A DNA stretch of 40,000 nucleotides, taken from an uncultured Thermoleophilaceae bacterium. Its GTDB lineage: Bacteria > Actinomycetota > Thermoleophilia > Solirubrobacterales > Thermoleophilaceae. Every line of letters begins with the position of its first letter. Within the stretch, counting starts at the first letter, position 1. The stretch is taken from positions 539,388-579,387 of the forward strand of contig CAWEGB010000008.1 of assembly GCA_963808545.1 (NCBI GenBank), written 5' to 3'. Below, in pieces: positions 2 to 26,124 of the stretch. A model generated the notes under the pieces. The model had not been told where the DNA came from, made no database searches, and worked only from the letters and a program-made list of their open reading frames with translations. A program made the translations under genes and the position numbers.

Positions 2-667
2 CACTCCGGACAGCTGCGTGAGGCGCTGAGCCAGGTGCGGTCGAACCCCGCCCTGCGCGTACCTCTGACCGCCATGGCCGTCGTCGGCACGTTGGCATTC
101 AACTTCCAGGTCGTGCTTCCGCTGATGGCTCGCTATGCCTTCGACGGAGGGGCCGGGACCTACGGCGCGCTCGCCGGAGCGATGGGCGCTGGTGCGATCC
201 TCGGCGCGGTGACCACGGCCGGACGCGGCAACCCGTCGCTGACCGGGCTCGGCGCGACCGCGCTGGCCTTCGGCGCCCTCCTGGCCGCCATAGCCGCGGC
301 GCCCACGCTGGGCCTTGCGCTCGCGGCACTGGTGCTGATGGGAGCCGCTGCCATCTCCTTCACCGCTACGACGAACTCACTGCTCCAGCTCGCTGCGCCG
401 ACCGCGATGCGCGGCCGGGTGATGGCGCTCTGGAGCGTCGTATATCTCGGCTCCACGTGTGTGGGCGGCCCGATCATCGGCTGGGTGTCCGAGCTCGCCG
501 GCCCCCGCGCCGGGCTTGCGCTTGGAGCGGTCGCCACGTTCGCGACCGGTGCCGGCCTGCTCATGGGTGCCGTCCGCCGGCAGCGTGCGGGCGAAGTACC
601 GGCCGCGCATGCCTCCTACGGCGCCTCCGGCGCTCAGACGCGCGCCGGGCGCTTCATCGTGCGATAG
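2..667 (+). CDS. MFS transporter, C-terminal part (5' end outside window)
   Basis: Frame 2 is open from nt 2 with no stop, so the gene starts upstream. The translation is about six Ala/Gly/Leu-rich hydrophobic helices, typical of the second half of a 12-TM MFS (EntS/DUF894-like) protein. Stop at 665-667. Confidence 0.7.
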   Translation, partial: HSGQLREALSQVRSNPALRVPLTAMAVVGTLAFNFQVVLPLMARYAFDGGAGTYGALAGAMGAGAILGAVTTAGRGNPSLTGLGATALAFGALLAAIAAAPTLGLALAALVLMGAAAISFTATTNSLLQLAAPTAMRGRVMALWSVVYLGSTCVGGPIIGWVSELAGPRAGLALGAVATFATGAGLLMGAVRRQRAGEVPAAHASYGASGAQTRAGRFIVR

Positions 668-1731
668 ACGAACTCGTCCGTCGGCCCCGACTCGCGTGCC
701 GAGACGACGCGGTCGTGATGCGGCGAGAACCGGCAGACCGGATCCGTGGCCGCCGCGTCGCCGGTGAGCCGCAGCGCCTGGCAGCGGCAACCGCCGAAGT
801 CCACCTCCTGGCGTCCGAGCGGGCACGTGCGGCATGGCTCCTGCATCCAGTCCGTCCCCCGGAAGCGGGCGAACGCGTCGGACTCGCTCCAGATCCACTC
901 AAGCGGATGCTCGCAAACGTTGGCGAACTCGAGCCCCGGGATCGTCGACGCCGCCTGGCAGGGCAACACATCGCCGTTCGGAGCGACCACAATCGCCGTC
1001 CGGCCCCAGCCACCCATGCATGGCTTCGGCAGGTCCTCATAGAAGTCCGGGAGCACCCAGAGGACGTCGACCTTGGGGCCGACCCGCTCGCGGAAGCGCC
1101 GGACCGCTTCCTCTGCGCGCCGCAGCTGCTCCCAAGATGGCATGAGCGCCTCCTGGTTTGGGACCGCCCAGCCGTAGTACTGCGTATTCGCGAGCTCGAG
1201 CCGCTGCGCCCCGAGATCGATTGCGAGATCGAGCAGCTCCTCGATCCGATCGAGGTTCTGCCTATGCAGCACGCAGTTAATCGTCAGCGGGAAGTCCAGC
1301 TCCTTGACGACGTGCGCGGCCGCGATTTTCTTCTCGAACGACCTGTTGCCGGCGATGCGGTCGTTCTCCGCCGCGTCCGGGCTCTGAATGGAGATCTGCA
1401 CGTGGTCTAGCCCGGCCGACTTCAGCGCCTCGGCGCGCTCGCGGGTGAAGTGGATCCCGGCGGTGATCAGCGACGAGTAGAGGCCGGCGTCGCGCGAACC
1501 CGAGCAGAGCTCGACCAGATCGCGGCGCAGCATCGGCTCACCGCCCGTGAGCGCGAGCTGAAGGACGCCGAGCGCGCGCGCCTGCCGGAAGGTGCGGGTC
1601 CAGTGCTCGGTCTCGAGTTCGCGGCGGTACTTCGCGGCGCCGATGTCGAGCGGGTTCGAGCAGTATGGGCAGTGAAGCGGGCACTGGTAGGACAGCTCGG
1701 CGATCAGCGTTGACGGCCTAAGCAGCTGCAT
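634..1731 (-). CDS. pqqE: PqqE, radical-SAM/SPASM peptide cyclase for PQQ biosynthesis
   Basis: 365-aa ORF starting at ATG 1731. N-terminal radical-SAM CxxxCxxC (CPLHCPYC), GGEP motif and C-terminal SPASM Cys cluster (CRTCP..GGCRCQA). Last gene of a pqqABCDE-ordered block, overlapping the pqqD end by 14 nt. Confidence 0.95.
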   Translation of the reverse strand: MQLLRPSTLIAELSYQCPLHCPYCSNPLDIGAAKYRRELETEHWTRTFRQARALGVLQLALTGGEPMLRRDLVELCSGSRDAGLYSSLITAGIHFTRERAEALKSAGLDHVQISIQSPDAAENDRIAGNRSFEKKIAAAHVVKELDFPLTINCVLHRQNLDRIEELLDLAIDLGAQRLELANTQYYGWAVPNQEALMPSWEQLRRAEEAVRRFRERVGPKVDVLWVLPDFYEDLPKPCMGGWGRTAIVVAPNGDVLPCQAASTIPGLEFANVCEHPLEWIWSESDAFARFRGTDWMQEPCRTCPLGRQEVDFGGCRCQALRLTGDAAATDPVCRFSPHHDRVVSARESGPTDEFVYRTMKRPARV

Positions 1732-1981
1732 CGACCACCAGGCCTCTCTGAGTCAGGCCGTCGACCAGCCCTTGAACGTCATCTCGTAGATCGGAGTCCT
1801 CGTAGCGCGCCGAGAGGGTGCCGACGATTTCGTCGACCGAGCGCTCCCCGTCGCACAGCTCAAGCACCGCCGCCGCTGTGGGGTTGAGCCGCACGGCCCC
1901 CTCGGGGACCAGCAGCACGTGCTCCTCGCGCACCTCGTCATATTGAAGCCGCGCGCCGGTGACGAGCCGGGGGCGGGTCAC
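1718..1981 (-). CDS. pqqD: PqqD, PQQ precursor-peptide chaperone
   Basis: This is the C-terminal 87 codons of the 341-aa track ORF. GTG at 1981 forms a GTGA overlap with the pqqC stop. The sequence (..[29 protein letters not shown]..) is PqqD-like. The upstream part of the track ORF is an alternate frame of pqqC. Confidence 0.85.
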
Positions 1982-2715
1982 GCGTCCGGCCCCGACGGCT
2001 GCGTCTCGCCGCGCTCGATGGCCTCGAGCTGTGCCCACAGCATCTCGGTCTTGAAGCGGAGCGCGGCGACGGCAGTCTCCTGCTGCTCGCGGGTTCGGCA
2101 GCGCTCGACGGTCAGGTCGAGGGCGTACTGCGCATCGCGTGGCGCCTGCACGAGCCGTGTGCGGAAGTACTCGAGCCCGGCGGGGTCGATCCAGTCGTAG
2201 TGCCTCTCGAGTGCGTCGAGCCGCACCCGGATCGCGGCCGGCCCGAAGAGCTCGGTGAGCGATGACGCGACCGCCTCGATCCACGGCTTCTGGCGCGCAA
2301 AGTTCACGTAGGCGTCGACCGCGTAGCGCACGGCGGGCAGCACGCGTCGCTCCGACAGCAGCTCCTCCCGCGAGACCCCGAGCGCCTCGCCGAGGCGTAG
2401 CCACGACTCGATACCCCCCTTTTCGTCGCTCCCGCCGTCGTGGTCGATGATGCGGCCCACCCACTCCCGCCTGACCTCGACGTCGGGGCAGTTTGACAGG
2501 ATCGCCGCATCCTTCAGCGGGATGCACTTCTGGTAGTAGAAGCGGTTCGCAACCCAGCGCTGGAGCTCCTCGCGCGTGAGCTCTCCCGCGTCCATTCGCC
2601 TGTGGAACGGGTGCAGGTTGTGGTAGCGCGTCCCCTGCGCGCGCAGCTGAGCGACGAACTCCGCGGGTGGCCAGGGCGCAGGCTCCGTCGTCGGTCTCGT
2701 CGCGGTCTCGCTCAT
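1978..2715 (-). CDS. pqqC: PqqC, pyrroloquinoline-quinone synthase
   Basis: 245-aa ORF with full-length resemblance to PqqC (..[44 protein letters not shown]..). ATGA overlap with the pqqB stop. Confidence 0.95.
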
Positions 2716-3608
2716 TGCTCGATCTCGAGGCCATCGTAGGCAACTTCCACGCCCGCGACTCGGACCGCCTCGCGCTCGGGGGAGTCCTCGAGCAGTATCG
2801 GGTTCGTATTGTTGATGTGGACGAGCACCGTGCGCGGTCGCTCGAGCCGCGCCAGCCCCTCGAGCGTCCCGCCCGGGCCCGAGAGCGGTAGGTGTCCCAT
2901 GTCGCGGGCGCTACGCGCCGAGATGCCGAGCCGGGCGAGCTCGTCGTCGCGCCAGAAGGTTCCGTCGACGAGCACGGCGTCGCTCGCGGCGAACCGGGTG
3001 AGCATGTCGGCGTCCAGGCGGGCGAGACCGGGAGCGTAGGTCACCACGCCGCCACTCGCTGCGTCGCGGAAGACGAACCCACTGGCCTGAAGCTCGACAT
3101 CCGACCCGTCCAGGTAGCGCGGCGCGTCGCCGCCAGTCTCGAACGGCTCGACCGTGAGGCTCGATCCTCCGAGCGGTCTAACCTGCCCCGGCTCCAGCGT
3201 CCGCCACTCGGCCCCGGAGTAGCGCTTCAGGATCGACAACACGGGATAGCCGCTCCGCAGCGCGCGCTCGACGCCCTCGGCTCCGTAGACGCACACGGGC
3301 GCCGCCGACTCACGCAGAAGCAGCAGCCCGGCGGTGTGGTCGATCTCGGCGTCGGTCAGGAGGACGCCCGCGATCGGGGGCGAGCGCACCCCCTCTGCCT
3401 GACCGGGCGCGAGCGCTTCGAGTTGCTGGCGCGCATCCGGCGAGGCGTTGACCAGAAACCACGGCCCCTCCTCACCGCGAATCGCGAGCGACGACTGCGT
3501 CCGAGGTCGCGCCCGTACACCCTCGCGCCCGGCCTCGCAGGTGCCGCAGCGACAGTTCCACTGCGGAAAGCCTCCGCCGGCGGCCGAGCCGAGAATGCGG
3601 ACGCGCAC
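2712..3608 (-). CDS. pqqB: PqqB, metallo-beta-lactamase-fold PQQ biosynthesis protein
   Basis: 298-aa ORF with a GTG start. The N-terminus [24 protein letters not shown] is characteristic of PqqB. Lies between pqqA and pqqC. Confidence 0.9.
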
Positions 3609-3629
3609 GTGGCGGAAGAACAGGTAGCC

Positions 3630-3646
3630 CCGGCGGGGGGGCGCCG
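3630..3646 (-). promoter_or_regulatory. GC-rich stem-loop between pqqA and pqqB (possible attenuator or transcript-stabilising hairpin)
   Basis: Perfect inverted repeat CCGGCG / CGCCGG with a 5-nt loop, 23 nt after the pqqA stop. No clear U-tract follows. Hairpins at this position are known in other pqq operons. Confidence 0.4.
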
Positions 3647-3668
3647 GAGGCTACGTCGGACTGCCGCT

Positions 3669-3809
3669 CTACCGGTGGTACATGTAGAGGGTGACCTCGC
3701 AACAGAGGTCGACGTACTCGAACTCGGGCTTGACCCACGTGGGACGGGTCTCCGAGGTGACCTCGGAAGAGAGGCCGACGAGCTCAAGCTCGGGCGTGAT
3801 CAACGTCAT
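3669..3809 (-). CDS. pqqA: PqqA, PQQ precursor peptide (46 codons; below the ORF-track size cutoff)
   Basis: Manual translation of the minus strand gives MTLITPELELVGLSSEVTSETRPTWVKPEFEYVDLCCEVTLYMYHR*. ATG at 3809 is preceded by GGAGGAG. The C-terminal E-V-T-L-Y is the conserved Glu-x3-Tyr PQQ core. Lies immediately upstream of pqqB. Confidence 0.8.
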   Translation of the reverse strand: MTLITPELELVGLSSEVTSETRPTWVKPEFEYVDLCCEVTLYMYHR

Positions 3810-3844
3810 GGAACTCCTCCTTTAGCGAATGATTCTCTTATCGA

Positions 3845-4357
3845 TCAACCAAGCAGTAGGAACACACCAGACGCCACGAGCAGAGCGACTCCGGCGAACC
3901 GGACCGCGACTGCTCGACTCTGCAGCGCCGGAACCACGCGCGGGAGCACCCCGGCCACGTACAGGCCGACAAGGGCAAGCAGCGCACTGGACAGCGCCTG
4001 CTCCGCGGCGTGCCCGACGAGCGAGCCCGAGTAGTCGCTCGCCACGCCATAGGCGAGGTTGTCCATCGTCAGGGCAAATGGCAACACCCAGACAGCCCAT
4101 GACGCCGTGACCAGTCGCGACCCGGCGGCGACGACGATCAGATAGTACGCCAGCACGGCCAGTGTCCCAACCGCCAGGAACCCGGTCACACTCTCCGAGA
4201 TCGTCCAACCGAGGCCCGCCCCGATCAGGAATGCGGCGCCGTCGGCGGCGGCGAAGAGCGCGGCGAGCGGCAGGCGCCACCGTCGCTCGACAAGCGCACC
4301 GATCGCGAGGCACGCGATAAAGCTGTCAATACCAAGAAGTAAGAAACCCATGCTCAA
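3845..4357 (-). CDS. Integral membrane protein, MntP/YtaF-like (DUF204 repeats)
   Basis: 170-aa ORF with about 5-6 predicted TM helices. Two copies of the DUF204-type motif (LLLGIDSFIACLAIG and FALTMDNLAYGVAS), as in the Mn efflux pump MntP. Lies between the dehydrogenase and pqqA. Confidence 0.55.
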   Translation of the reverse strand: MSMGFLLLGIDSFIACLAIGALVERRWRLPLAALFAAADGAAFLIGAGLGWTISESVTGFLAVGTLAVLAYYLIVVAAGSRLVTASWAVWVLPFALTMDNLAYGVASDYSGSLVGHAAEQALSSALLALVGLYVAGVLPRVVPALQSRAVAVRFAGVALLVASGVFLLLG

Positions 4358-4387
4358 CTCCAGACCCTGATTAGTGGCTTGTCGTTG

Positions 4388-6079
4388 TTACTCCTCCGGC
4401 AGCGCGAATACGAACAGGGAGCTTCCCTGACCCGCCCCGAGCATCCCGGGCAAAAACCCTTCCGTCCATGCGCCCCAACCGGTCGGCACGGCGATGTACT
4501 GCCTTCCGTCGATGCTGTAGGACGAGGGGCTGCTGTGGTGGCCGCTGCCACACTGGAAGTGCCACAGCAGCTCCCCGCTCTCGGCGTCGAGCGCGTTGAA
4601 CTCCCCGGTGGGCTCGCCGGCGAACACGAGGTTGCCGCCCGTGGTCAGCACCGATGAGCACATCGGTATGTCATTCGCCCAGCGCCAACGCTCCTCACCC
4701 GTGCGCGGATCGAAGGCGCTCACAGACCCCGCCATGTCCTCGAGGTCCACGGCGACTCCCGCTCCCCAGTACGGGATGCTCTCCTTGAACTCCCTGCGCC
4801 GCCGCGTGGCCGTCGCACCGACGTCCTGCACCGGGGCGTACAACAGCTCGGTGTTCGGGTTGTAGCACGCGTGCGTCCATTCCTTGGCGCCGGCCGGCCC
4901 CGGCCAGAAGTGGACCGGGTCGCCCTCCTTGTCGGGGTAGACCTTAGGCGTCACGTTGCCCTTCTCGTCGACCTCGCCCCAGTCGATGCGGTCGACGAAC
5001 GGCGCCACCCGGACCGGCTCCATGTTCGTGCGATCGAGGATGTAGAGGAACCCGTTCTTGTCGAAGTGCGCCGCCAGCTTCTGCCCGTCGAGGTCGAACA
5101 GGATGTGCTCCATCGTGGAGTCGTAGTCCCACAGGTCGTGCGGGGTGTACTGGAAGTGCGACCGGATCTCGCCGCTGTCAGCGTCCACGGCGACGCCGGA
5201 ATCGGTGTAGAGGTTGTCGCCCTCGCGGACGCCTCCGTCGAAGTCGGGACACGGGTTGCCGGTCCCGAAGTACAGAAGGTTCAGCTCCGGGTCGAAGGTG
5301 CTCGTGACCCAGCAGTTGCCGCCACCCCGCTGCCAGGCCTCGCCTTCGGGCCAGGTCTCGGAGCCCGGCTCTCCGGGCTTCGGCACCATGTAGCACCGCC
5401 ACACGCGCTCGCCGGTCTCGCGCTTGAACGCGTCGGCGTGGCCGCGCACCCCGAATTCCCCGCCGGAGCTCCCGACGATGACCATGTCCTTTACGACCAG
5501 GGGGGCGACCGTGGCGCTCTCGCCGGCCCGCACATCGCCGTACGTCTGGTCCCAGACCTTCTTACCGGTCTCGGCGTCAAGCGCGACGAGGTGGGCGTTC
5601 AGGGTGACGACGAAGACCTTTCCCTCGGCCACGGCGACCCCGCGATTCACGTTGCCGCAGCAGAGCGACACGTCGTACGGGATCGCATGCCTGTACTGCC
5701 ACAGTTGCTCTCCGGTCCGGGCGTCAAGGGCCCAGACCCAGCCATCCCAGCCTGAGACGAACATGGTTCCGTCCACGACGATCGGAGAGGCCTCGAACGA
5801 GTATGTCGATTTGCCCGAGTGCAGGCCCACTGAGCCGCACTGGAAGACCCATGCCGGGGCAAGCCGCTTGACGTTCTCCTTGTTGATCTGGTCTAGCGGG
5901 CTGTAGCGCTGCCCGTCGTAGGCGCCGTAGTAGGTGAGCCAGTTCTGCGGTTCCGAGCGGGCGTCGAGAATGCGCTCGTAGGTGACGTCCTTGGCCACCG
6001 GCGGCGCAATGCCTTTGATGGGGCTCAGAGTTGTGTTGTCGACGGCCTGCCCTGCGTCTACGTACTCCTCGGTTGCCAT
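4388..6079 (-). CDS. xoxF: PQQ-dependent dehydrogenase, methanol/ethanol family, XoxF-like (lanthanide-type signature), no signal peptide
   Basis: 563-aa ORF. ATG 6079 has AGGAG 6 nt upstream; the track start at 6082 is TTG, and an in-frame TAG lies 3 codons further up. Motifs present: vicinal Cys-Cys (SLCCGNVNRG), GGEFGVRG, WQRGGGNCW, GTGNP and HDLWDYDS (D-x-D). Family assignment is high confidence. The xoxF label and the substrate are inferred. Confidence 0.85.
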   Translation of the reverse strand: MATEEYVDAGQAVDNTTLSPIKGIAPPVAKDVTYERILDARSEPQNWLTYYGAYDGQRYSPLDQINKENVKRLAPAWVFQCGSVGLHSGKSTYSFEASPIVVDGTMFVSGWDGWVWALDARTGEQLWQYRHAIPYDVSLCCGNVNRGVAVAEGKVFVVTLNAHLVALDAETGKKVWDQTYGDVRAGESATVAPLVVKDMVIVGSSGGEFGVRGHADAFKRETGERVWRCYMVPKPGEPGSETWPEGEAWQRGGGNCWVTSTFDPELNLLYFGTGNPCPDFDGGVREGDNLYTDSGVAVDADSGEIRSHFQYTPHDLWDYDSTMEHILFDLDGQKLAAHFDKNGFLYILDRTNMEPVRVAPFVDRIDWGEVDEKGNVTPKVYPDKEGDPVHFWPGPAGAKEWTHACYNPNTELLYAPVQDVGATATRRRREFKESIPYWGAGVAVDLEDMAGSVSAFDPRTGEERWRWANDIPMCSSVLTTGGNLVFAGEPTGEFNALDAESGELLWHFQCGSGHHSSPSSYSIDGRQYIAVPTGWGAWTEGFLPGMLGAGQGSSLFVFALPEE

Positions 6080-6122
6080 CAAGTACTCCTATCCACGGTG
6101 GTGGTTGTGCCGAGCGGTCGAT

Positions 6123-6560
6123 CTACGGTTGCGGCTGCGGCGGGCGGTCCAGACGTGCCTCCGGCGGAGCGTCCCCTTGCACGACGATCGCCGCGGTCAA
6201 GCCGCGGCCCTCGTCGTTGCCGGTACGGGAGCCGTACCAGTAGTACCCCGGGCCGTCGAGGGTGAGGTTGGCCGTCCCGCGCGAATGGTTCACCAACCAG
6301 ATGAACTTGTAGTCACCGTTGCACGGCAGGACTGCGCAATGGGTGTTCTTGTCGTCGTTGAAGAACTCGATCTCGACCTCGCCTGCATGGGGCAGGACAA
6401 GGATCCCGGGCTCGAACACCAGCTCGTCCTCCAAGATCCGGACCGTGGCGCGCATCTTGCCGTCGGGTCCCTCCTCGGCCTCCCCGATGCTTCCCCGCCC
6501 GAGCATTCGACCCAACATCGCGCCATTTTGCTTATCCAACAACTCCGCAATCTTGGCCAC
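6123..6560 (-). CDS. Small cupredoxin-like protein lacking the canonical type-1 Cu ligand set
   Basis: 145-aa ORF. GTG start with GAGGA 5 nt upstream. Protein-like composition, unlike the Arg/Pro-rich shadow ORFs. GEVEIEFFNDDKNTHCAVLP and GYYWYGSRTGNDEGRGLTAAIVV resemble the first-His strand and the C-terminal strand of cupredoxin_1-type domains, but the C..H..M ligands are replaced. No signal peptide. Confidence 0.55.
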   Translation of the reverse strand: MAKIAELLDKQNGAMLGRMLGRGSIGEAEEGPDGKMRATVRILEDELVFEPGILVLPHAGEVEIEFFNDDKNTHCAVLPCNGDYKFIWLVNHSRGTANLTLDGPGYYWYGSRTGNDEGRGLTAAIVVQGDAPPEARLDRPPQPQP

Positions 6561-6596: not shown

Positions 6597-7976
6597 CTAA
6601 CACTTTCTCTTGGGCCGCGCGGTCAGCCGCACGCGCTCCCGGCGCGGCTCCTCGAACGTCATGTAACCCCAGTCGAGGGGCGACTCCTGGCGGTAGTTTT
6701 TTCGCAGGGCGCGCGCGATCGTGGCCTTCATCAGCTCCTTCCCGAGGTAGAAGGCGTGCGTGGCCTCGTCGACCCCGAGCTGGTCGAAGATCTCGTTGAA
6801 GTCGGTGCCCTTGACGAACCGGTCGGCGTTGAAGACGTAGATCCAGTCGCTGTCGGCGAAGATGCGGAAATTCGGGTCGGTGACGTGCTCGTGCAGCTCG
6901 CGCAGCTCGGACTCCGCGTAGGGGCGGAGGTCCTCATCCTTCACCGTCAATAGCCGCCCGTCGACGTGCTTGGGGGGCGTGCCGTGCTCCTGCGCGAAGT
7001 GCATGAGCTGCGCCGCCAGCACCGCCTCTCGGACAGCGCCGCGCGCCCACTCGATGACCTCGGTGGTGAGCACGTTGCGGATGCCAAGCTCCTGGCAGAA
7101 GCCGATGAGCAGCGCGGTAACCCCGGTGCTGTCGGCCTCGGTCAGCTCGGTGAGGTTGCCGATCCCCATCAGCATCTCCGCCGCGGGATGACGCCGGCGC
7201 ACCTCCAGGTAGCGCCCGAGGCTGGCCGCGAACCCGATGCCTATCGGCTCGATGATCGGATCGACGAGGTATGGCTTGCCGAGCCGCTCGAGGTGGTCGA
7301 TCGTCGCCTCGAGGCTGCCGAGGTCCTCCGGCGTGTCCGGGATGAGCACGGGCGTCGCGCGCAGGCGCTCGGCAAGGTCGCGGTTGGACCCGTTGAGGCT
7401 GAGGACATAGTCAACGCCCGCCTCGTCGGCCATCAGGATCTCCTCGCGGTCCATCGTGTCGATGCTCAGGGCGAAGCCGCGTTCGCGCAGCTCGGCGATC
7501 ACCGCGGGGCCTTCGTCGAGCCAGCGGCGCTCGAGCGAAAGGCCGAGATCGATCACGTCGGCGCCGGCGTCGCGGTAGTAGCCCGCGAGCTCGAGGATGT
7601 GCTCGCGACTCAGCCTCGGGACGTGGTTGATCTCCGCGAACACGCGGATATCGCGCGGACCGTAGCTGGCGCGGGCGTCGGCCTGACCGAACCAACTCGG
7701 CAGTTGCTTGAGGTCGGCGGGGCCCTTCTCGACGGGGATTCCGAAGCGCTCGGCCAGCACGTCGGTCTCTCCCTCACAGAGGCCGGGGATCATGATCTTC
7801 GTGACCGCTTCGGGGAGTTCGAGGAAGCGCGCGATCCACGTCGTGGTCATCAGCGCGGCGACCGTGATCTTCATCACCGCGACCTCGTAGTCGAACGGCA
7901 GCTCGGTGCGGCCCAGCGTCTCACGCAGCGCCGGCGCGGCGAGCTTGCCGGTTACAAACAGGAGCCGCTCGGCCAC
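6597..7976 (-). CDS. Dihydropteroate-synthase-like protein of H4MPT biosynthesis (pterin-binding domain with N- and C-terminal extensions)
   Basis: 459-aa ORF with a GTG start. The central DAGADVIDLG.. pterin-binding (DHPS) motif region has flanking extra domains, as in the DHPS-like proteins found in methanopterin gene islands. Confidence 0.75.
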   Translation of the reverse strand: MAERLLFVTGKLAAPALRETLGRTELPFDYEVAVMKITVAALMTTTWIARFLELPEAVTKIMIPGLCEGETDVLAERFGIPVEKGPADLKQLPSWFGQADARASYGPRDIRVFAEINHVPRLSREHILELAGYYRDAGADVIDLGLSLERRWLDEGPAVIAELRERGFALSIDTMDREEILMADEAGVDYVLSLNGSNRDLAERLRATPVLIPDTPEDLGSLEATIDHLERLGKPYLVDPIIEPIGIGFAASLGRYLEVRRRHPAAEMLMGIGNLTELTEADSTGVTALLIGFCQELGIRNVLTTEVIEWARGAVREAVLAAQLMHFAQEHGTPPKHVDGRLLTVKDEDLRPYAESELRELHEHVTDPNFRIFADSDWIYVFNADRFVKGTDFNEIFDQLGVDEATHAFYLGKELMKATIARALRKNYRQESPLDWGYMTFEEPRRERVRLTARPKRKC

Positions 7977-8001
7977 GCGCGTGTCCGGGTGCGGCGCTGC
8001 T

Positions 8002-8376
8002 TTAGCGCGAGCCCTTGCTCACGACGAACTTGTTCGGCGTCCCCTCGAGCGCGCTGTCGGGCTCCGGCCGCCACAGCACGTGGTCCTCGATCTCGCGCGC
8101 CAGGGCGAAGTCCTTGTCGGTGATGCCACCGCTCGAGTGCGTCTGCAGCTTCACCCACACCTTGCCCCAGGTCACGGCCAGGTCGGGGTGATGGTAGGCC
8201 GCCTCGGACAGGTAGCCGACCGTGTTGACGAGCATGAGCGTTGTAGGCCAGCCGTCGGTGTTGTACTTGCGCCGCAGCCACCCGCCGTCGAGGTACCAAC
8301 CGTCGAGGCCGTCCTCCTGGATCTTGGCCTCGACCTCCTCGTCCGTGTACGGCTCGAGCTTTACATTCGTCTCCAC
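8002..8376 (-). CDS. Pterin-4a-carbinolamine dehydratase (PCD/DcoH) family protein
   Basis: 124 codons from GTG 8376, preceded by AAGGAGG 8 nt upstream. An alternative GTG at 8400 forms a TAGTG overlap with the SDR stop. The sequence ..GWPTTLMLVNTVGYLSEAAYHHPDLAVTWGKVWVKLQTH.. is PCD-like. The upstream part of the 194-aa track ORF is not coding. Confidence 0.75.
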   Translation of the reverse strand: METNVKLEPYTDEEVEAKIQEDGLDGWYLDGGWLRRKYNTDGWPTTLMLVNTVGYLSEAAYHHPDLAVTWGKVWVKLQTHSSGGITDKDFALAREIEDHVLWRPEPDSALEGTPNKFVVSKGSR

Positions 8377-8399
8377 TGCGATCGCCTCCTTCGAGGGCA

Positions 8400-9182
8400 C
8401 TACATCACAACGCCGCCGTTGACGTAGATGGCCTGACCGGTGACGAACGCGGCCTCGGGTGACGCGAGCCAGAGCGCGGCCGCGGCGACGTCCTCCGGCC
8501 GGCCCCAGCGTGCGAGCGGCGTGGACTCCGCGACCGAGCGGTGGAACTCGCGGTCGACCTCCCGCGCGAACTCGGTCTCGATCCACCCCGGGCAGAGCAC
8601 GTTGACGCGAACCAGGGGCGCTTGGCCACGCGCCAGGCTCTTGCTGAAGGCGAGCACGCCGCCTTTGACGGTGCTGAACAGCTCGGGGTTCTCGCCAGCC
8701 ATTCCAGCGAGCACGTGGTCCCAGCTCATGTTCACGATGGTCCCACCGGTGGGCTGCTCGCGCATCACCTCACCGGCGGCGTACGAGCACGCGACGGTCC
8801 CCTTGAGGTCGACCGCCAGCAGGAGGTCGAGCTTTCGCTCCCAGCCGCAGTCGGCTGCCTCGCCGGTCAGCACATCCGCGCCGGCGTTGTTCACCCACAC
8901 GTCGAGGCCGCCCAGCTGTTCCCGCGCATGCTCCACCAGCGCCTCGCAGGCGCCGCGGGTACTGAGATCCGCCTGGGCCAGTAGTGCGCGGCCACCGAGG
9001 CGCGCGATCCGCTCGGCGACCGCCGACGCCCCCTTCGCACTGTCCCGGTGCGTCACGAGCACGGCTGCGCCTGCGCCGCCGAACGCCTCGGCGATCGCGG
9101 CGCCGATGCCGCTGCTCGCGCCGGTGACCACGGCCCGCACCCCGTCGAGCCGGCGCCCGCCGATCTGGGCCACCTGGGTCAT
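8400..9182 (-). CDS. Short-chain dehydrogenase/reductase (SDR) with atypical active-site segment
   Basis: 260-aa ORF with TGASSGIGAAIA Rossmann motif, NNAG and IVNMS. Where YxxxK is expected the sequence reads F-S-T-V-K. First gene of the long minus-strand operon. Confidence 0.85.
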   Translation of the reverse strand: MTQVAQIGGRRLDGVRAVVTGASSGIGAAIAEAFGGAGAAVLVTHRDSAKGASAVAERIARLGGRALLAQADLSTRGACEALVEHAREQLGGLDVWVNNAGADVLTGEAADCGWERKLDLLLAVDLKGTVACSYAAGEVMREQPTGGTIVNMSWDHVLAGMAGENPELFSTVKGGVLAFSKSLARGQAPLVRVNVLCPGWIETEFAREVDREFHRSVAESTPLARWGRPEDVAAAALWLASPEAAFVTGQAIYVNGGVVM

Positions 9183-10110
9183 GAGCCTGCCCGACTATAC
9201 GATGCCCCAGATGCCGGTCAAGCAGGGCCCGCGCCGCAGCCCGGCCTCGACGGCCGGGGTCGCCCGTCTCGGCCCCGAGGACGTCGCGCGCGCCGCGCAG
9301 CTGGCCTGTGTGCTGGAGGCAAGCGCCGAGAAGCCGGGCAACATCACGCCGAGCCACGACTTCGATGACACCACGTACGAGGACATGCTGTACAGCGGGA
9401 TCGCGCTCGGCCCCGAGCTCGGCCGCGCGGGTGAGCGCGGAGTCGGCGAGACGGTGCTGGCCGCCGTTCGCGCCTCGCGCGACGCCGTCGGCGCCAACAC
9501 CAACCTCGGCATCGCGCTGCTGCTTGCTCCGCTCGCGCGAGCGGAGCTCGGAACGTGCGGCGGACCGCTGCGCGAGCGCCTCGCCAACGTGCTGCGTGCG
9601 CTGACCGTCGAGGACGCGCGAGACGCTTACGCCGCGATCCGCGTGGCGGGCCCCGGCGGCCTCGACGAGCCGGTCGAGCACGACGTGCGCGAGGACCCCC
9701 GCGTGACGCTGCGCGAGGCCATGGCGGCGGCGGCTCAGCGCGACACAATCGCGAGCGAGTACATCACCGACCACGCGGTCACCTTCGAGCTCGGGCTGCC
9801 CGCCCTCGCCAATTCGCTGGGCGACGGGCTGCGTCCGCGCGACGCAATCGTCGAGTTGGCCCTGTGCCTGGTCGCCGCCGTGCCCGACACGCTGATCGCC
9901 CGCAAGCGCGGCGCGGAAGCGGCGGGTCGAGTGTCGGCGGGAGCGCGGCGAGTGCTCGCCGCAGGTGGCGTGCGGAAGGCCGGAGGCTGGACCGCGTTGG
10001 CCGAATTCGACGCCTCGCTACGCGAGGACGGCAACGCGCTCAATCCGGGGACCACGGCCGATCTCGTGACCTCCGTGCTCTTCGTGGCGCTGCTGGAGGG
10101 CGTGCTCTGA
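9181..10110 (+). CDS. Triphosphoribosyl-dephospho-CoA synthase (CitG/MdcB) family protein, H4MPT/methylofuran-island type
   Basis: This is the C-terminal ~300 codons of the 556-aa track ORF. Motifs ..EKPGNITP.., GANTNLGIALLLAPL and NPGTTADL are CitG-like. Start is uncertain: ATG 9181, 9202 or 9211. The upstream part of the track ORF is antisense to the SDR gene. Confidence 0.75.
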   Translation: MSLPDYTMPQMPVKQGPRRSPASTAGVARLGPEDVARAAQLACVLEASAEKPGNITPSHDFDDTTYEDMLYSGIALGPELGRAGERGVGETVLAAVRASRDAVGANTNLGIALLLAPLARAELGTCGGPLRERLANVLRALTVEDARDAYAAIRVAGPGGLDEPVEHDVREDPRVTLREAMAAAAQRDTIASEYITDHAVTFELGLPALANSLGDGLRPRDAIVELALCLVAAVPDTLIARKRGAEAAGRVSAGARRVLAAGGVRKAGGWTALAEFDASLREDGNALNPGTTADLVTSVLFVALLEGVL

Positions 10111-10115
10111 GCCAC

Positions 10116-11273
10116 GTGGGTGAGCCGATCCTGCTGGTCTCGGTCAGCGCGCGCATGCTCGCCGAGCTGGGGGTGAGAGCCGGGCACGACGTCGTGGCGC
10201 TCGACCGCTTCGGAGACCTCGACCTGCAGCGGCTTTGCCCGACCGTGTCCGTGCTGCGCGACCTCGGCGGACGGGGCGGGATGGCGGCGCTGGTGGACGC
10301 GGCGGAGAAGATCCCCGCGCCGAGCGTGATCTACGGCGCGGGACTCGAGAACCGGCCGGATCTTGTCGCCCGGCTGGCTGCCGGCAGGCGGCTGCTCGGG
10401 TGTACCCGCGAGACGCTCGAGCGGGTGCGCGACCCTGCTGTGCTGGGCGCGTCCCTGCGCGCGGCCGGCCTCGCCTACCCGTTGACGTTCGGCGCTCGCG
10501 ACGCACCGCGGCGGGCGGAGCGCTCCCGCCGCTGGCTGCGCAAGCCGGTGCGCGGCGGCGGCGGACGCGGCGTTCGCGAGTGGCGCGGGGGGGCGCTGGA
10601 CCGGGAAGACATCGTGCAGGAGCACATCTCGGGACTCGCATGCTCGGCGGCGGCGGTCGCCGACGGGCGCTCCGCCATCGTGCTCGCTGTGAGCGAGCAG
10701 CTGATCGGGCACCGCGGGCTCGGCGCGCGCGGCTATGCGTGGTGCGGCAACCTCGTGCCGCCGCGGCTCGGAGAGGCGCAGCGACGCGCGCTGGCCGTCG
10801 CCGCGCGGACGATCTGCGCGCACCTGGCGCTCGCGTTCGGACTGCGCGGGCTGTTCGGCGTAGACCTCGTGTGGGACGGCCAGCGCGCCTGGGTCGTCGA
10901 GGTCAACCCGCGTCCGACGGCGTCGCTCGAATGCGTCGAGGAGGCGCACGAGGTCGGCGTCTTCGCCGCCCACCTGGAGGGTTGCGGCGGACGCCTGCCG
11001 TCGATCGCTTCCGCTCGAACACCGCGCCGGGCCGCCGGCAAGGCGATCCTCTTCGCCACGGAGGGCGTGCGCGTCGGTGACACCCGCGGCTGGCCGGCGC
11101 GCGGCATCCGCGACGTGCCTTACCCGCGCGAGCGGGTCGCCGCCGGTCACCCGATCTGCACCCTCGTCTCGATTCAGGAGTCCCCGGATGCGGTTCTCGC
11201 CGATCTCGAGGCGCGCGCCGCCGCGCTCCGCGCCGAGCTTCGTCAGTGCGCCGGGATCCGTGCCCCCGCCTGA
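10116..11273 (+). CDS. ATP-grasp domain protein (cofactor-biosynthesis ligase, MfnD/Orf17-like)
   Basis: GTG 10116 lies 5 nt after the preceding stop. 385 aa with ATP-grasp features (..LRKPVRGGGGRGV.., ..GLFGVDLVWDGQRAWVVEVNPRPTASLE..). The upstream 187 aa of the track ORF is an alternate frame of the CitG-like gene. Confidence 0.75.
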   Translation: MGEPILLVSVSARMLAELGVRAGHDVVALDRFGDLDLQRLCPTVSVLRDLGGRGGMAALVDAAEKIPAPSVIYGAGLENRPDLVARLAAGRRLLGCTRETLERVRDPAVLGASLRAAGLAYPLTFGARDAPRRAERSRRWLRKPVRGGGGRGVREWRGGALDREDIVQEHISGLACSAAAVADGRSAIVLAVSEQLIGHRGLGARGYAWCGNLVPPRLGEAQRRALAVAARTICAHLALAFGLRGLFGVDLVWDGQRAWVVEVNPRPTASLECVEEAHEVGVFAAHLEGCGGRLPSIASARTPRRAAGKAILFATEGVRVGDTRGWPARGIRDVPYPRERVAAGHPICTLVSIQESPDAVLADLEARAAALRAELRQCAGIRAPA

Positions 11274-11296
11274 CGGGCCTATGCTCACGCCGGACC

Positions 11297-12247
11297 GTGA
11301 CGCTCTCGCTCAACGATCGCGCCCAGGAGCTCGCCGACCGCCTCGCCGCCGAGGCCGACGCGCTGCGCTTGAACGTGACAACGCTGCCTGGCGGCACGCG
11401 GTTGATCGACTGCGGCAGCGAAGTTCCCGGCGGGCTCGAGGCAGGACGGCGCTTCGCCGAGATCAGCATGGCCGGCCTCGGCACGGTGTCGTTCGCCCCG
11501 CTCGTGCTCCAGGGCAGCTGGCTCCCGGGGCTCACGGTGGTAACCGATCGCCCTGCGCTCGCCTGTCTGGCGTCCCAGTACGCGGGCTGGCGCCTGGATC
11601 GCGACGAGTACTTCGCCATGGCCAGCGGGCCGGGCCGGGCGCTGATTCGGGCCGAGGAGCTCTACAGCGACCTCGAGGTCGACGAGCGCGCGCGGAGCGC
11701 GGTGCTGTGCCTCGAAACGCGCGAACCGCCGCCGGAGCCGGTCGCCGACTACGTGGCCGAGCGAGCCGGCCTGACGGCCGCGGATCTGACGCTGCTGTTC
11801 GCGCCGACCGCGAGCTTGGCGGGCGGCGTGCAGGTTGCCGCGCGCGTCGTCGAGACCGCGCTGCACAAGCTGCACGAGCTCGAATTCGACGTCGGGCGCG
11901 TGGTGAGCGGCTTCGGGAGTTGCCCGCTGCCGCCGGTCGCCAAGAAGGACCCCGAGGCGATCGGTCGGACGAACGACGCGGTGCTCTACGGCGGCCAGGT
12001 CGAGCTGACCATCGATGCCCCCGACGAAGAGCTCGAGGCGGTCGTGCCGCGCCTGCCGGCCTCGGCCTCGGACGATTACGGTGGGCCGTTTGGCGACGTA
12101 CTCGAGCGGGCGGACTGGGACTTCTACAAGATCGACCCGCTGCTCTTCAGTCCTGCCGAGGTGCGCCTCGTGAGCACGGCGAGCGGACGCAGCTTTCACG
12201 CCGGTGGCGTGGACATCGGGGTCCTCGAGCGGTCCTTTCGGGGATGA
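11297..12247 (+). CDS. mch: Methenyl-tetrahydromethanopterin cyclohydrolase
   Basis: About 316 aa from GTG 11297 (alternative GTG 11246). Full-length Mch resemblance (SLNDRAQELADRL.., ..LACLASQYAGW.., ..NDAVLYGG..). ATGA overlap with the next gene. Confidence 0.9.
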   Translation: MTLSLNDRAQELADRLAAEADALRLNVTTLPGGTRLIDCGSEVPGGLEAGRRFAEISMAGLGTVSFAPLVLQGSWLPGLTVVTDRPALACLASQYAGWRLDRDEYFAMASGPGRALIRAEELYSDLEVDERARSAVLCLETREPPPEPVADYVAERAGLTAADLTLLFAPTASLAGGVQVAARVVETALHKLHELEFDVGRVVSGFGSCPLPPVAKKDPEAIGRTNDAVLYGGQVELTIDAPDEELEAVVPRLPASASDDYGGPFGDVLERADWDFYKIDPLLFSPAEVRLVSTASGRSFHAGGVDIGVLERSFRG

Positions 12248-12825
12248 GGAGACGCCCGCCCGGGCTCGCGATCATCGAGACCGTCACGACGACGATCAAC
12301 CCGGACGGGACGGTGAACTGCGCCGCGATGGGAGTGGAGTGGGGCGACGAGGTCATCGTCATCAAGCCCTTCCGGACGACACGCACGCTGCGCAACCTAC
12401 GTGCGACCGGCGAGGCCGTGGTCAATCTCACCGACGACATACTGCTGTTCACAGAGGCTGCGCTCGGCGATCCGCACCCACCCACGCGGCCCGCGACCAC
12501 GGTAGCCGGCGCCGTGCTGGCGGATGCCTGCTCGTGGCGTGAGGTGACGGTCGAGGCGATCGACGCCAGCGGGCGGCGCGCGCGTGTGACGACGCAGATC
12601 GTGGCGAGCGGGAGCGGGCGCGAGTTCGTCGGCTTCAACCGCGCCTCTTCTGCCGTGCTCGAGGCATCGATCATCGCCTCGCGCTCGCGCTGGCTGGCCG
12701 CTGAGGAGATACGAACCGAGTTGGAGCGCCTCCAGGTGCTCGTCGACAAGACGGCGGGGCCGCAGGAGCGCGAGGCGATGAAGCTCGTGCGGCGTCACGT
12801 GCGCGCCGCGGTGGCCGGCGGATGA
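12244..12825 (+). CDS. DUF447 family protein (split-barrel, H4MPT-biosynthesis associated)
   Basis: 193 codons from ATG 12244, at the end of the 582-aa track ORF. The sequence ..TTINPDGTVNCAAMGVEW..VIKPFRTTRTLRNLRATGEAVVNLTDD.. resembles DUF447 proteins of methanopterin islands. ATGA overlaps on both sides. Confidence 0.65.
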   Translation: MRRRPPGLAIIETVTTTINPDGTVNCAAMGVEWGDEVIVIKPFRTTRTLRNLRATGEAVVNLTDDILLFTEAALGDPHPPTRPATTVAGAVLADACSWREVTVEAIDASGRRARVTTQIVASGSGREFVGFNRASSAVLEASIIASRSRWLAAEEIRTELERLQVLVDKTAGPQEREAMKLVRRHVRAAVAGG

Positions 12826-13763
12826 CGTCGGTTCGCGTGAAGGCGCCCGCGCGTCTGCACATGGGCATGCTTGACGCCGCCGGCGGCGGCGTCCGGCGCT
12901 TCGGCGGCCTCGGGGTCGCCCTCAGCCGCCCCGCCGCGGTCGTCGAGGCGAGCCCGAGCGACGACGTGACCGCCGAGGGCCCTGATGCCGAGCGCGCGCT
13001 CGCCATCGCCCGTCGCTCTAGGGAGGCGCTCGGGCTCTCGGGCGGCGCGCACGTGCGCGTGATGGAGGCGATCCCGCCTCATGTCGGCCTCGGCTCGGGG
13101 ACCAAGCTCGGGCTCGCCGTGGCGGCGGCCCTGGCGGCGCTGGCGGGGCAGACGGCGGAGCCCGAGACGATCGCCCGCGCGGCCGGGCGCGGCGCGCGCT
13201 CCGCGGTCGGCCTGTGGACATTCGTCCTCGGCGGACTGGTCGTGGAGGGCGGCCGGCGTCCCGGCGTGGAGCGCCCAGCCCCGCTGCTCACTCGTCATGC
13301 CATGCCCGGCGAATGGCGCTGCGTGCTCGTGATCCCAGACGCTGAGCCGGGACTCTCGGGGCGGGCGGAGGAGCAGGCGTTCGGGGAGCTGCGTCCCGAC
13401 CCCGACCGCGCCGCGCTGATCGCCCAGCTGGTGCTGACCTCGCTGCTCCCGGGGCTCGCCGAGGGCGGCCTCGCCGAGTTCGGGGACGCCCTCACACGTA
13501 TCCAGCGGCTTGTGGGTGAGTCGTTCGCCTCCGTTCAGGGGGGTGTGTTCCATCCGCGCGCGGGCGACGTTGTCGACACGCTGCTCCGCCTTGGGGCGGC
13601 GGGCGCGGGGCAGAGCTCGTGGGGACCCGCCGCTTACGGGATCGTCGAAGACGAGCCGGCGGGGCGCGAGCTTGCCCGCGGTATCGAGGCCGAGCTGGCC
13701 GGGCGCGGCCGCGTGGAGGTCGTGGGCTTCGACAATCGTGGCGCTCGAGTGGAGGCGGGATGA
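12822..13763 (+). CDS. Beta-ribofuranosylaminobenzene 5'-phosphate (beta-RFAP) synthase family protein, GHMP-kinase fold
   Basis: 313-aa ORF. GHMP motif PPHVGLGSGTKLGLAVAAA and N-terminus VKAPARLHMGMLD, as in archaeal-type beta-RFAP synthases (MptG). A paralogous kinase function cannot be excluded. Confidence 0.75.
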   Translation: MTSVRVKAPARLHMGMLDAAGGGVRRFGGLGVALSRPAAVVEASPSDDVTAEGPDAERALAIARRSREALGLSGGAHVRVMEAIPPHVGLGSGTKLGLAVAAALAALAGQTAEPETIARAAGRGARSAVGLWTFVLGGLVVEGGRRPGVERPAPLLTRHAMPGEWRCVLVIPDAEPGLSGRAEEQAFGELRPDPDRAALIAQLVLTSLLPGLAEGGLAEFGDALTRIQRLVGESFASVQGGVFHPRAGDVVDTLLRLGAAGAGQSSWGPAAYGIVEDEPAGRELARGIEAELAGRGRVEVVGFDNRGARVEAG

Positions 13764-14464
13764 GGCTGCTGGTGAGCGTCATCGACGCCGACGAGGCGCG
13801 CGTGGCCGTCGACGCGGGCGTCGACATCGTCGACGTCAAGAACCCCGCCGAGGGCTCGCTGGGCGCCCCCGCCCCCGGAGTGATCGAGCGAGTCCGGGAG
13901 GTCGTGCCGCCGGAGCACCCGGTCAGCGCCGCGATCGGCGACCTGCCAAACCTGCCCGGCACAGCCGCGCTCGCCGCGCTGGGCGCAGCGCGCTCCGGCG
14001 CCGCGTACGTGAAGGTCGGGCTGTGGGGGACGTCTACCACGGATGAGGCCGTGGCGGTCCTGCGCGCGGTGCGCGACGCGCTCGACGGCGGGGCGGCCGT
14101 GATCGCGGCCGCCTACGCCGACGCCGAGCGCGTGCCCGGCGGGCCTCTGCCGCCCGGGGCCGTCGTCGCGGCCGCACAGAGCGCGGGCGTAGGGGGCTGC
14201 CTGCTCGACACCGCGCTCAAGGACGGCCGCGGGCTGTTCGAATGGCTCACCCCGGAAGCGCTCGCGGCGCTGGTGGCCGAGGGGCACGCCGCGGACCTCG
14301 AGATGGCGCTCGCCGGAGCCCTGCACGCCGACGACCTGAGCGTTGTCCGGGGGACCGGCGCCGACATAGCCGGCGTTCGCTCGGCGGCCTGCCGCGACGG
14401 TCGGCGCACGGAGCCGCTCGACGCCGAGCGAATCGAGCGGCTGCGCGCCATGTGCCAGCGCTAA
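13760..14464 (+). CDS. (5-formylfuran-3-yl)methyl phosphate synthase (MfnB)/DUF556 family protein
   Basis: 234 codons from ATG 13760 (ATGA overlap). MRLLVSVIDADEARVAVDAGVDIVDVKNPAEGSLGA.. is typical of the MfnB family, which makes the furan moiety of methanofuran/methylofuran. Confidence 0.8.
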   Translation: MRLLVSVIDADEARVAVDAGVDIVDVKNPAEGSLGAPAPGVIERVREVVPPEHPVSAAIGDLPNLPGTAALAALGAARSGAAYVKVGLWGTSTTDEAVAVLRAVRDALDGGAAVIAAAYADAERVPGGPLPPGAVVAAAQSAGVGGCLLDTALKDGRGLFEWLTPEALAALVAEGHAADLEMALAGALHADDLSVVRGTGADIAGVRSAACRDGRRTEPLDAERIERLRAMCQR

Positions 14465-14504
14465 CCAGGCCCGGCGTTCCCGATCGGGTCCGTTGACGAC
14501 TCGG

Positions 14505-24233: not shown

Positions 24234-24239
24234 CGCCGG

Positions 24240-25472: not shown

Positions 25473-25584
25473 CCGCGCGCCGGAGCATACCCAGCCGAGG
25501 ACGGTGACCCGCTCTGCGCCGGACCGCTACGCCGCGCTAGACTCGCGCCCCCCTCACGCAGACCCGAGAGAGAGGTGCGCACAC

Positions 25585-26097: not shown

Positions 26098-26124
26098 CCG
26101 GACGCCGGGCCGCAGGCCCAGGCC

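Follow-up and report, generated by a model that had tools for sequence, protein, structure and literature searches.

Dehydrogenases that depend on pyrroloquinoline quinone (PQQ) are regarded as periplasmic enzymes, and lanthanide methanol dehydrogenases have thus been assumed to be absent from Gram-positive bacteria (PMC10875860). The signal-bearing lanthanide enzyme PedH is periplasmic and its signal peptide is cleaved (PMC5487730, PMC6839425). XoxF is likewise periplasmic, and a 2024 paper therefore finds its absence from Gram-positive metagenome-assembled genomes (MAGs) unsurprising (PMC10875860). In Mycolicibacterium smegmatis, a lone PQQ alcohol dehydrogenase, MSMEG_3726, lies within the PQQ biosynthesis cassette MSMEG_3721-3727 (Haft 2011, PMC3023750). 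The window analysed here is a 40,000-nucleotide stretch from an uncultured Thermoleophilaceae bacterium (GenBank assembly GCA_963808545.1, contig CAWEGB010000008.1, positions 539,388 to 579,387). It encodes a PQQ-dependent alcohol dehydrogenase that carries the lanthanide marker and no export signal, directly preceded by a small cupredoxin-fold protein, hereafter the partner, which has no leader either. Databases and the 2011 analysis by Haft (PMC3023750) already cover the enzyme family, its lanthanide marker and an actinobacterial PQQ cluster that has an MSMEG_3727-family neighbour. In the searchable full-text literature, outside which lie subscription-only papers such as the Keltjens 2014 review, no account was found of an actinobacterial PQQ alcohol dehydrogenase that is leaderless or cytoplasmic. 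The central features are as follows.

Positions 4388-6079, minus strand: PQQ-dependent alcohol dehydrogenase of the methanol/ethanol family, leaderless, 563 amino acids (TIGR03075, PF01011, translation, AlphaFold 2 model).
Positions 6086-6091, minus strand: in-frame TAG (6091-6089), overlapped by an AGGAG ribosome-binding site (6090-6086), read from the sequence.
Positions 6123-6560, minus strand: MSMEG_3727-family PQQ-associated protein, cupredoxin fold, leaderless, 145 amino acids (TIGR04339, PF23509, AlphaFold 2 model).

An earlier sequence-only reading of the window had reported the intact catalytic motifs, the missing leader and a reading frame that cannot be extended. All of its statements about the sequence hold, and the strand, which it left unstated, is the minus strand. 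Translation of this strand over 4388-6082 gives L-MATEEYVDAGQAVDNTTLSPIKGIAPPVAKDVTYERIL... (the same N-terminus is also given as L-MATEEYVDAGQAVDNTTLSPIKGIAPPVAKDVTYERILDARSEPQNWLTYYG...). The upstream context reads ...CGT GGA TAG GAG TAC TTG ATG GCA, placing the TAG stop four codons 5' of the ATG (6079-6077) and three codons 5' of the TTG (6082-6080), the two candidate starts. The ATG at 6079 is the probable start codon, because the AGGAG is spaced 6 nucleotides from it and only 3 from the TTG. Only 43 nucleotides separate the dehydrogenase from the end of the preceding gene at 6123. A hidden leader in another frame, or a fusion with the preceding gene, is ruled out by the stop codon and the 43-nucleotide spacer. 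The window sequence and the related loci show no frameshift that would restore a signal peptide upstream.

The N-terminus of the dehydrogenase is acidic and non-hydrophobic, with four Asp/Glu and no Lys/Arg among residues 1-15. The hydrophobic region (h-region) of a signal peptide is absent: the highest nine-residue Kyte-Doolittle mean within the first 40 residues is 1.03. As a control from the same window, a sugar-binding lipoprotein (35512-36513, MSSTARGPRWRLAFIAVLALSAALLVAAC...) reaches 3.14 and has a textbook signal ending in LVAAC. Each of the 115 full-length members of the leaderless clade to which the dehydrogenase belongs has a hydrophobicity maximum of no more than 1.69, and 45 of the 48 full-length relatives that fall outside it reach 1.9 or more. 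Four PQQ dehydrogenase representatives outside the clade (P0248, P0304, P0328 and P0377) seemingly lack a hydrophobic N-terminus as well; these may be mis-called starts or further leaderless lineages.

The same protein is found, identical, on three independent metagenome contigs. The 120 closest homologues listed share 80-95% identity and are nearly all 561-566 amino acids long; those with an organism name are labelled Solirubrobacterales, Solirubrobacteraceae, Baekduia and Solirubrobacter. The loci were surveyed in a single scan of one genome per GTDB species with the upstream small protein as bait. Relatives of the bait, the actino-type partners, are present in at least 592 GTDB species genomes, and the counts over 80 loci given below rest on the best 80 of these. 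In all 80 the dehydrogenase gene lies directly downstream of the partner gene, and the dehydrogenases align from residue 1 or nearly so. Their hosts are Thermoleophilia, Streptosporangiaceae and Actinomadura. The N-termini share the pattern MAT(E/D)-YVDAG-A----LS---G-APPV; YVDAG occurs in 78 of 82 loci, drawn from different assemblies and sequencing projects, and a stop codon precedes the same MAT start by 0-12 codons at many of the orthologous loci. Orthologues that uniformly carry signal peptides would have spoken against the sequence-only reading; the survey gave the opposite, with 115 homologues and 80 loci devoid of a signal.

A Streptomyces plasmid bears the same leaderless pair with the shared N-terminus. 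The plasmid, NZ_CP109439.1 of Streptomyces sp. NBC_01483, is a 1.56-Mb linear replicon, on which the locus (L086, 61172-85600) consists of the leaderless pair followed by pqq genes, adjoined by a catalase-peroxidase-like open reading frame (ORF); the PLSDB gene table holds no annotation there. At six long-read MAG loci (L018, L032, L034, L043, L046 and L057, with the dehydrogenase region at about 10430-12170) the dehydrogenase match is fragmented across frames, and that of L034 contains an internal stop. These broken frames are either sequencing indels or pseudogenes.

The dehydrogenase matches the TIGR03075 profile with 613.4 bits against a cut-off of 480, over profile positions 3-530 of 530, and also matches PF01011. 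The translation contains HDLWDYD, SLCCGN, GGEFGVRG, WQRGGGNCW and GTGNP, so the catalytic Asp-x-Asp, the vicinal Cys-Cys and the GGEFGVRG, W..GGG..W and GTGNP motifs are all intact, as had been read from the sequence, and they align with the metal and PQQ motifs of PedH. The active-site residues by this alignment are Cys140-Cys141, Glu208 (GGEFG), Asn275 (GTGNP) and the catalytic Asp318, with the extra Asp two residues further on (HDLWDYD here, HDGWDFD in PedH). At related loci, Asp-x-Asp (DYD) is found in 76 of the 76 motifs detected, and the vicinal Cys-Cys is kept in all 115 members of the leaderless clade, whose alignment has a mean column identity of 87% with intact metal and PQQ motifs. 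The AlphaFold 2 model is an eight-bladed beta-propeller (predicted template-modelling score 0.81) in which residues 1-14 are of low confidence. Foldseek superimposes it on PedH with a template-modelling score of 0.81, and on ExaA, XoxF and MxaF with 0.75-0.81. Bit scores place the enzyme closer to the ethanol-type group than to either XoxF or MxaF (PedH 378, quinohaemoprotein alcohol dehydrogenases 288-316, ExaA 304, XoxF 244-293, MxaF about 226-251). Among 1.84 billion representatives it falls in a discrete clade with one neighbouring cluster at 63% identity and all others at 46% or less. PQQ binding and alcohol oxidation are predicted, the one support being pqqABCDE in the same operon.

The leaderless clade is also rich in cysteine, with a median of 9 residues vs. 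4 in the signal-bearing relatives. Cys256, Cys474 and Cys510 occur in every member and Cys277 in 90% of them, and at several further positions Cys alternates with Ala, Ser or Thr. This pattern would weakly fit a reducing compartment. Clade-specific cysteines stand beside active-site motifs: in GGGNC-W by the conserved Trp, in GNPC by the metal-ligand Asn, and in FQCGSG. Cys474 replaces the Trp of the APLWGG motif of PedH.

The partner scores 244.9 bits with TIGR04339 (cut-off 75) and is also matched by PF23509. Its AlphaFold 2 model (mean predicted local distance difference test score 68.6) matches 4HCF, FtrB, CuA domains and auracyanin with a probability of 1.0. Of the type-1 copper ligands, His74 is kept, and Cys, His and Met are replaced by Ser111, Asp116 and Leu121. 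The replacement by Ser, Asp and Leu is found in 120 of 120 actino-type partners and in 81 of 82 loci, whereas 117 of 120 Gemmatimonadota-type partners have Cys, His and Met at the same positions. The two groups differ equally at their N-termini: a lipobox is present in 106 of 120 Gemmatimonadota-type partners vs. none of 120 actino-type ones, and a hydrophobic N-terminus in 113 of 120 vs. none of 120. Judged by these ligands, the window partner cannot be a classical blue-copper carrier. Within the former copper-site region (residues 58-117), the residues newly invariant in the actino-type are His58, Asp69-Asp70, His74-Cys75, Asp83, Ser111 and Asn115-Asp116-Glu117. This set of residues would be better suited to a hard cation than to copper. 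The C-terminal tail of the partner, PPEA(R/K)LDRP-QP(R)P (6123-6164), is kept in both Actinomycetota and Gemmatimonadota despite their differing N-termini and metal sites, and is probably a docking element for the dehydrogenase.

The neighbouring cluster at 63% identity, P0242, is a Gemmatimonadota-type enzyme of 586 amino acids that starts MNRIGNFAARAGLLWGLVAGC... and has a lipoprotein signal with the lipobox LVAGC. On its contig, the gene upstream again encodes a PF23509 'PQQ system protein' (...AAVASAAILLASC), with the lipobox LLASC, whose loop FGCPVANHAGRGM and upstream His make up the full set of type-1 copper ligands.

Gemmatimonadota-type metagenome contig L084: partner at 2469-3023; dehydrogenase at 3056-4816.

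A search with the P0242 partner returned 1255 clusters, the few organism-named ones all being Gemmatimonadota. The P0242 enzyme has an extra pair, Cys417/Cys446, which is absent in the leaderless dehydrogenase. In a neighbour-joining tree the leaderless and the lipoprotein clades are sisters, nested among signal-bearing enzymes. Thus, the derived state is the one without signals and copper site. The joint loss of two export signals and of the electron-transfer metal centre of the partner looks like relocation rather than annotation noise. The Gemmatimonadetes PQQ methanol dehydrogenase (PQQ-MDH) of Butterfield et al. (2016), with H4MPT (tetrahydromethanopterin) genes upstream, is among the most abundant soil proteins (PMC5103831) and is presumably a member of the sister clade. 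The arrangement of the sister system suggests that a blue-copper protein, rather than cytochrome cL or XoxG, would accept the electrons of this abundant Gemmatimonadota methanol dehydrogenase. A 2016 paper labels a gene adjoining the dehydrogenase 'maturation protein', and this gene may be that of the cupredoxin partner. As with the leaderless enzyme itself, the searchable full-text literature yielded no description of the contrast with the Gemmatimonadota lipoprotein/blue-copper pair or of the loss of the copper ligands.

On the minus strand, the order of genes in the window is the MSMEG_3727-family protein, the dehydrogenase, a 168-residue membrane protein, pqqA, pqqB, pqqC, pqqD and pqqE, with intergenic gaps of 35-60 nucleotides within the operon. 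The profiles TIGR02108, TIGR03859 and TIGR02109 all score above their cut-offs in the pqq region. The remaining genes of the operon are listed below.

Positions 3845-4351, minus strand: polytopic membrane protein, 168 amino acids, divergent MntP/DUF204-like, putative metal-ion transporter (aligned orthologues).
Positions 3669-3809, minus strand: pqqA precursor peptide, 46 amino acids, ending ...CCEVTLYMYHR, with a Glu-x3-Tyr motif (gene call, faint PF08042 match).
Positions 2712-3608, minus strand: pqqB (PQQ biosynthesis, whole span 634-3608).
Positions 1978-2715, minus strand: pqqC (TENA_THI-4 match).
Positions about 1718-1982, minus strand: pqqD (PQQ biosynthesis).
Positions 634-1731, minus strand: pqqE (PQQ biosynthesis).

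The membrane-protein gene starts 36 nucleotides past the dehydrogenase stop and is found downstream of the dehydrogenase in 58 of about 80 loci, being missing from the Streptomyces plasmid locus. The window protein alone has no Pfam match even at E 10; in the alignment of its orthologues (A2), 3 of 18 members match PF02659 Mntp, the best at E 3.3e-24, and all share an invariant Asp9 and Asp97-Asn98. The MntP proteins characterised so far work as exporters. This membrane protein may transport a lanthanide or another cation, in either direction, and so does not discriminate between models of localisation.

The other side of the operon leads into genes for C1 metabolism, called by Pfam on the gene calls of the identical contig.

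Positions 6597-16000, strand unassigned for the region: H4MPT and methanofuran cofactor biosynthesis genes (Pfam on the gene calls of the identical contig; TIGR00284 dihydropteroate-synthase-like match).
Positions about 11297-12247, plus strand: Mch, methenyl-H4MPT cyclohydrolase (Pfam).
Positions 20873-26988, strand unassigned for the region: H4MPT-linked formaldehyde oxidation genes (Pfam on the gene calls of the identical contig).
Positions 20873-21694, minus strand: Fhc subunit GXGXG (Pfam).
Positions 21694-22593, minus strand: Fhc subunit FTR (Pfam).
Positions 22590-24233, minus strand: Fhc subunit amidohydrolase (Pfam).
Positions 24240-25472, minus strand: 410-amino-acid protein (gene call).
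Positions 25585-26097, plus strand: Fae (Pfam).
Positions 26125-26988, plus strand: MtdB (Mpt_N; Pfam).

The families in 6597-16000 are DUF6513/pterin-binding, pterin-4a dehydratase, short-chain dehydrogenase/reductase, CitG-like, ATP-grasp, DUF447, GHMP-kinase-like and 4HFCP synthase. The region from about 6600 to 30000 of this Thermoleophilia window amounts to a complete H4MPT-linked C1 island, including an archaeal-type GTP cyclohydrolase (PF02649, GCHY-1) and a PabB-like fusion. Islands of this type are usually discussed for Proteobacteria, Planctomycetes and Gemmatimonadota. In other genomes the leaderless pair is flanked by Fae, MtdB, DUF1464 and a ferritin-like protein. The latter, which resembles ribonucleotide reductase R2 (weak PF00268 match), is often encoded directly upstream of the partner (for example L027:8939-9814; about 26-35 loci) and has a homologue in the window near 14505-15350; it may be a synthase of the H4MPT precursor of the para-aminobenzoate (pABA) type.

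The H4MPT, Fae, MtdB, Mch and Fhc context points to the conversion of methanol to formaldehyde as the reaction, and methanol is most likely the substrate of the dehydrogenase, as judged from its gene neighbourhood. Field reports agree with this: besides the abundance of the Gemmatimonadetes PQQ-MDH in soil (PMC5103831), Solirubrobacteraceae were among the taxa labelled by 13C-methanol (PMC9258066). The Pfam matches across about 37 kb of the window include no cytochrome c, XoxG or XoxJ-type solute-binding family, and the conserved neighbour clusters of the related loci contain no cytochrome c or XoxJ either. The non-cytochrome-cL electron acceptor that the sequence-only reading had called for fits this gene content. 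Moreover, c-type cytochromes mature outside the cytoplasm, so they would be excluded as acceptors if the enzyme is cytoplasmic.

We consider it probable (about 0.65) that the enzyme is a cytoplasmic, PQQ- and lanthanide-loaded dehydrogenase of a monoderm actinobacterium (Thermoleophilia/Solirubrobacterales) that oxidises methanol and delivers formaldehyde to Fae and H4MPT. The leaderless orthologues, the leaderless partner without three of its four copper ligands and the lipoprotein sister pair favour the sequence-only proposal of a cytoplasmic or unconventionally exported lanthanide-type quinoprotein; localisation, metal and substrate we infer alike from sequence. The system would have entered a lineage without a periplasm, in which both export signals were then lost. 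PQQ, made in the cytoplasm by the adjacent pathway, and a lanthanide ion would be loaded into the enzyme there. Methanol would be oxidised to formaldehyde, which Fae and the H4MPT pathway would take over in the same compartment. The partner would no longer be a blue-copper electron carrier and might serve as a docking subunit or hold a new site formed from His74, Cys75, His58 and Asp116/Glu117, and the metal ion would be handled by the MntP-like membrane protein. A bolder version, which we hold as doubtful, makes this the first cytoplasmic quinoprotein dehydrogenase, with the partner repurposed as a hard-cation (lanthanide) chaperone for the apo-enzyme or as a new kind of redox adaptor to a non-cytochrome, non-copper acceptor. 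The former copper pocket carries the invariant set His74/Cys75, Ser111, Asn115/Asp116/Glu117 and Asp69/Asp70, and the clade-specific Cys256, Cys277, Cys474 and Cys510 might be part of a new electron outlet.

Several points weigh against a cytoplasmic lanthanide enzyme. The absence of a recognisable signal does not prove cytoplasmic retention. The vicinal Cys-Cys is strictly conserved; the periplasmic enzymes have these two cysteines linked as a disulfide close to PQQ, a bond that sits poorly with a reducing cytoplasm. No candidate electron acceptor emerges: the copper site of the partner is gone and nothing else redox-active is conserved in the neighbour clusters. An MntP-type exporter would equally fit the metallation of an extracytoplasmic enzyme. 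Residues 1-14, whose sequence is conserved (YVDAG) although the model shows them as disordered, could act as a targeting peptide of an unrecognised kind. The lanthanide dependence is predicted from a single marker, the Asp-x-Asp pair. For M. smegmatis, with its MSMEG_3721-3727 cluster, the available text of one report gives no PQQ-linked role in growth on ethanol and no growth on methanol, and added lanthanides go unmentioned there (PMC6529628).

The leaderless N-terminus could in principle be an artefact, a normal signal peptide being hidden by a mis-assigned start, a frameshift or a faulty assembly, and several related long-read MAG loci (L018, L034, L043, L046 and L057) indeed have broken dehydrogenase frames. 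However, this explanation is effectively refuted by the in-frame TAG four codons 5' of the ATG with 43 nucleotides to the previous gene, by the identical protein on three contigs and the near-constant length of the 120 listed homologues, and by the starting motif shared by 78 of 82 loci, often with a stop directly upstream. Another reading, which we regard as unlikely, is an export of the enzyme and partner that uses no N-terminal Sec, Tat or lipoprotein signal, so that the enzyme would work on the outer face of the membrane, as other quinoproteins do, with metal supplied by the MntP-like exporter. Candidate routes are hitch-hiking on a signal-bearing protein, a type VII-like system or another non-classical system that reads MATE-YVDAG. 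The nearly invariant but apparently disordered YVDAG, the conserved vicinal Cys-Cys and the MntP-family protein encoded after the gene in 58 of about 80 loci would all be explained in this way, and to our knowledge the characterised homologues all act outside the cytoplasm. However, no signal-peptide or secretion-system gene is conserved around the pair in the window and about 80 loci, the Streptomyces locus lacks the MntP-like gene, and the same genome uses ordinary lipoprotein signals. The partner has lost three of four copper ligands along with its lipobox, although they would be expected to persist if the enzyme still passed its electrons on outside the cell, and the clade has gained many variable cysteines. 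Two specific routes were rejected. For Tat hitch-hiking, clustering of the ORFs within ±7 kb across about 80 loci returned only the partner, the MntP-like protein, pqq and H4MPT-pathway genes as recurrent. For targeting of the N-terminus to a microcompartment or encapsulin, the window Pfam lists contain no shell or encapsulin family, and the conserved C-terminal tail of the partner is present in the exported Gemmatimonadota version too.

A largely independent question is whether the enzyme is a lanthanide methanol dehydrogenase at all, wherever it resides. It might instead use Ca2+ or another cation, possibly Mn2+ in view of the MntP-like neighbour, act on ethanol, other alcohols or aldehydes, or have a degenerate, non-catalytic role. 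Its greater closeness to PedH, ExaA and the quinohaemoprotein alcohol dehydrogenases than to XoxF or MxaF leans this way, as do Cys474 in place of the Trp of APLWGG and the lack of growth of M. smegmatis on methanol in the available text (PMC6529628). Against it stand the Asp-x-Asp in 76 of 76 detected motifs, as in PedH, the intact and strongly conserved metal and PQQ motifs (87% mean column identity), the PQQ biosynthesis genes in the same operon, and the Fae, MtdB, Mch and Fhc neighbours in the window and many other loci. In addition, the presumed sister, the Gemmatimonadetes PQQ-MDH, has been described as a methanol dehydrogenase abundant in soil (PMC5103831). We regard this alternative as quite improbable. 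A cytoplasmic, lanthanide-loaded methanol dehydrogenase is our preferred reading.

A cytoplasmic location would surprise specialists. The leaderless version is conserved across soil Actinomycetota, in hundreds of species, next to PQQ synthesis genes and a complete pathway of formaldehyde oxidation. Methanol consumption and lanthanide use by monoderm soil bacteria may therefore be underestimated where surveys look for signal-bearing XoxF clades. If the bolder version given above is true, at least about 590 species of soil Actinomycetota would form an unrecognised group of lanthanide users and methanol oxidisers. A cytoplasmic enzyme would raise the questions of how lanthanides reach a cytoplasmic site, whether the vicinal disulfide is needed, and where the electrons go without cytochrome c or blue copper. 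The tractable host M. smegmatis has the cluster, and direct testing with added lanthanides is possible.

Cupredoxins act as electron acceptors of quinoproteins: amicyanin serves methylamine dehydrogenase, and azurin serves quinohaemoprotein alcohol dehydrogenase. The window partner shares their fold, and its Gemmatimonadota version has a complete type-1 copper site; however, in the window partner itself the Cys, His and Met ligands have given way to Ser, Asp and Leu. The best solved relative of the dehydrogenase is PedH, the lanthanide-dependent ethanol dehydrogenase of Pseudomonas putida KT2440 (6ZCW/6ZCV; E 1e-111, about 39% identity). Both are eight-bladed propellers with a vicinal Cys-Cys, Glu and Asn as ligands and, after the catalytic Asp, the Asp of the lanthanide marker. 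Unlike PedH, the window enzyme has about 30 acidic, non-hydrophobic residues in the place of the signal peptide, residue 3 of mature PedH aligning to residue 32. It also differs in having no cytochrome neighbour, an obligate pairing with a cupredoxin-fold protein, and the extra Cys256, Cys277, Cys474 and Cys510. With XoxF (M. fumariolicum SolV 4MAE, M. buryatense 6DAM, M. extorquens 6OC5) it shares the family, the Asp-x-Asp and a likely role in passing methanol-derived formaldehyde to H4MPT. However, its similarity to XoxF is lower than to PedH (244-293 bits), the window has no xoxG or xoxJ, and there is no signal peptide. The cluster MSMEG_3721-3727 gives its name to the partner family TIGR04339/PF23509, which the window protein matches; it is known from genome analysis only, and no function, metal, localisation or acceptor is reported for it in the available text (PMC6529628). 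Closest of all is the Gemmatimonadota system, which has the same two-gene module, the same Asp-x-Asp and the partner tail PPEA-LDRP. There, in contrast, both proteins are lipoproteins, the partner has the His/Cys/His/Met set, and the enzyme has fewer cysteines and the extra pair. The two lineages thus offer a natural relocation experiment, in which one redox module is found with its signals and copper site in Gemmatimonadota and without both in Actinomycetota.

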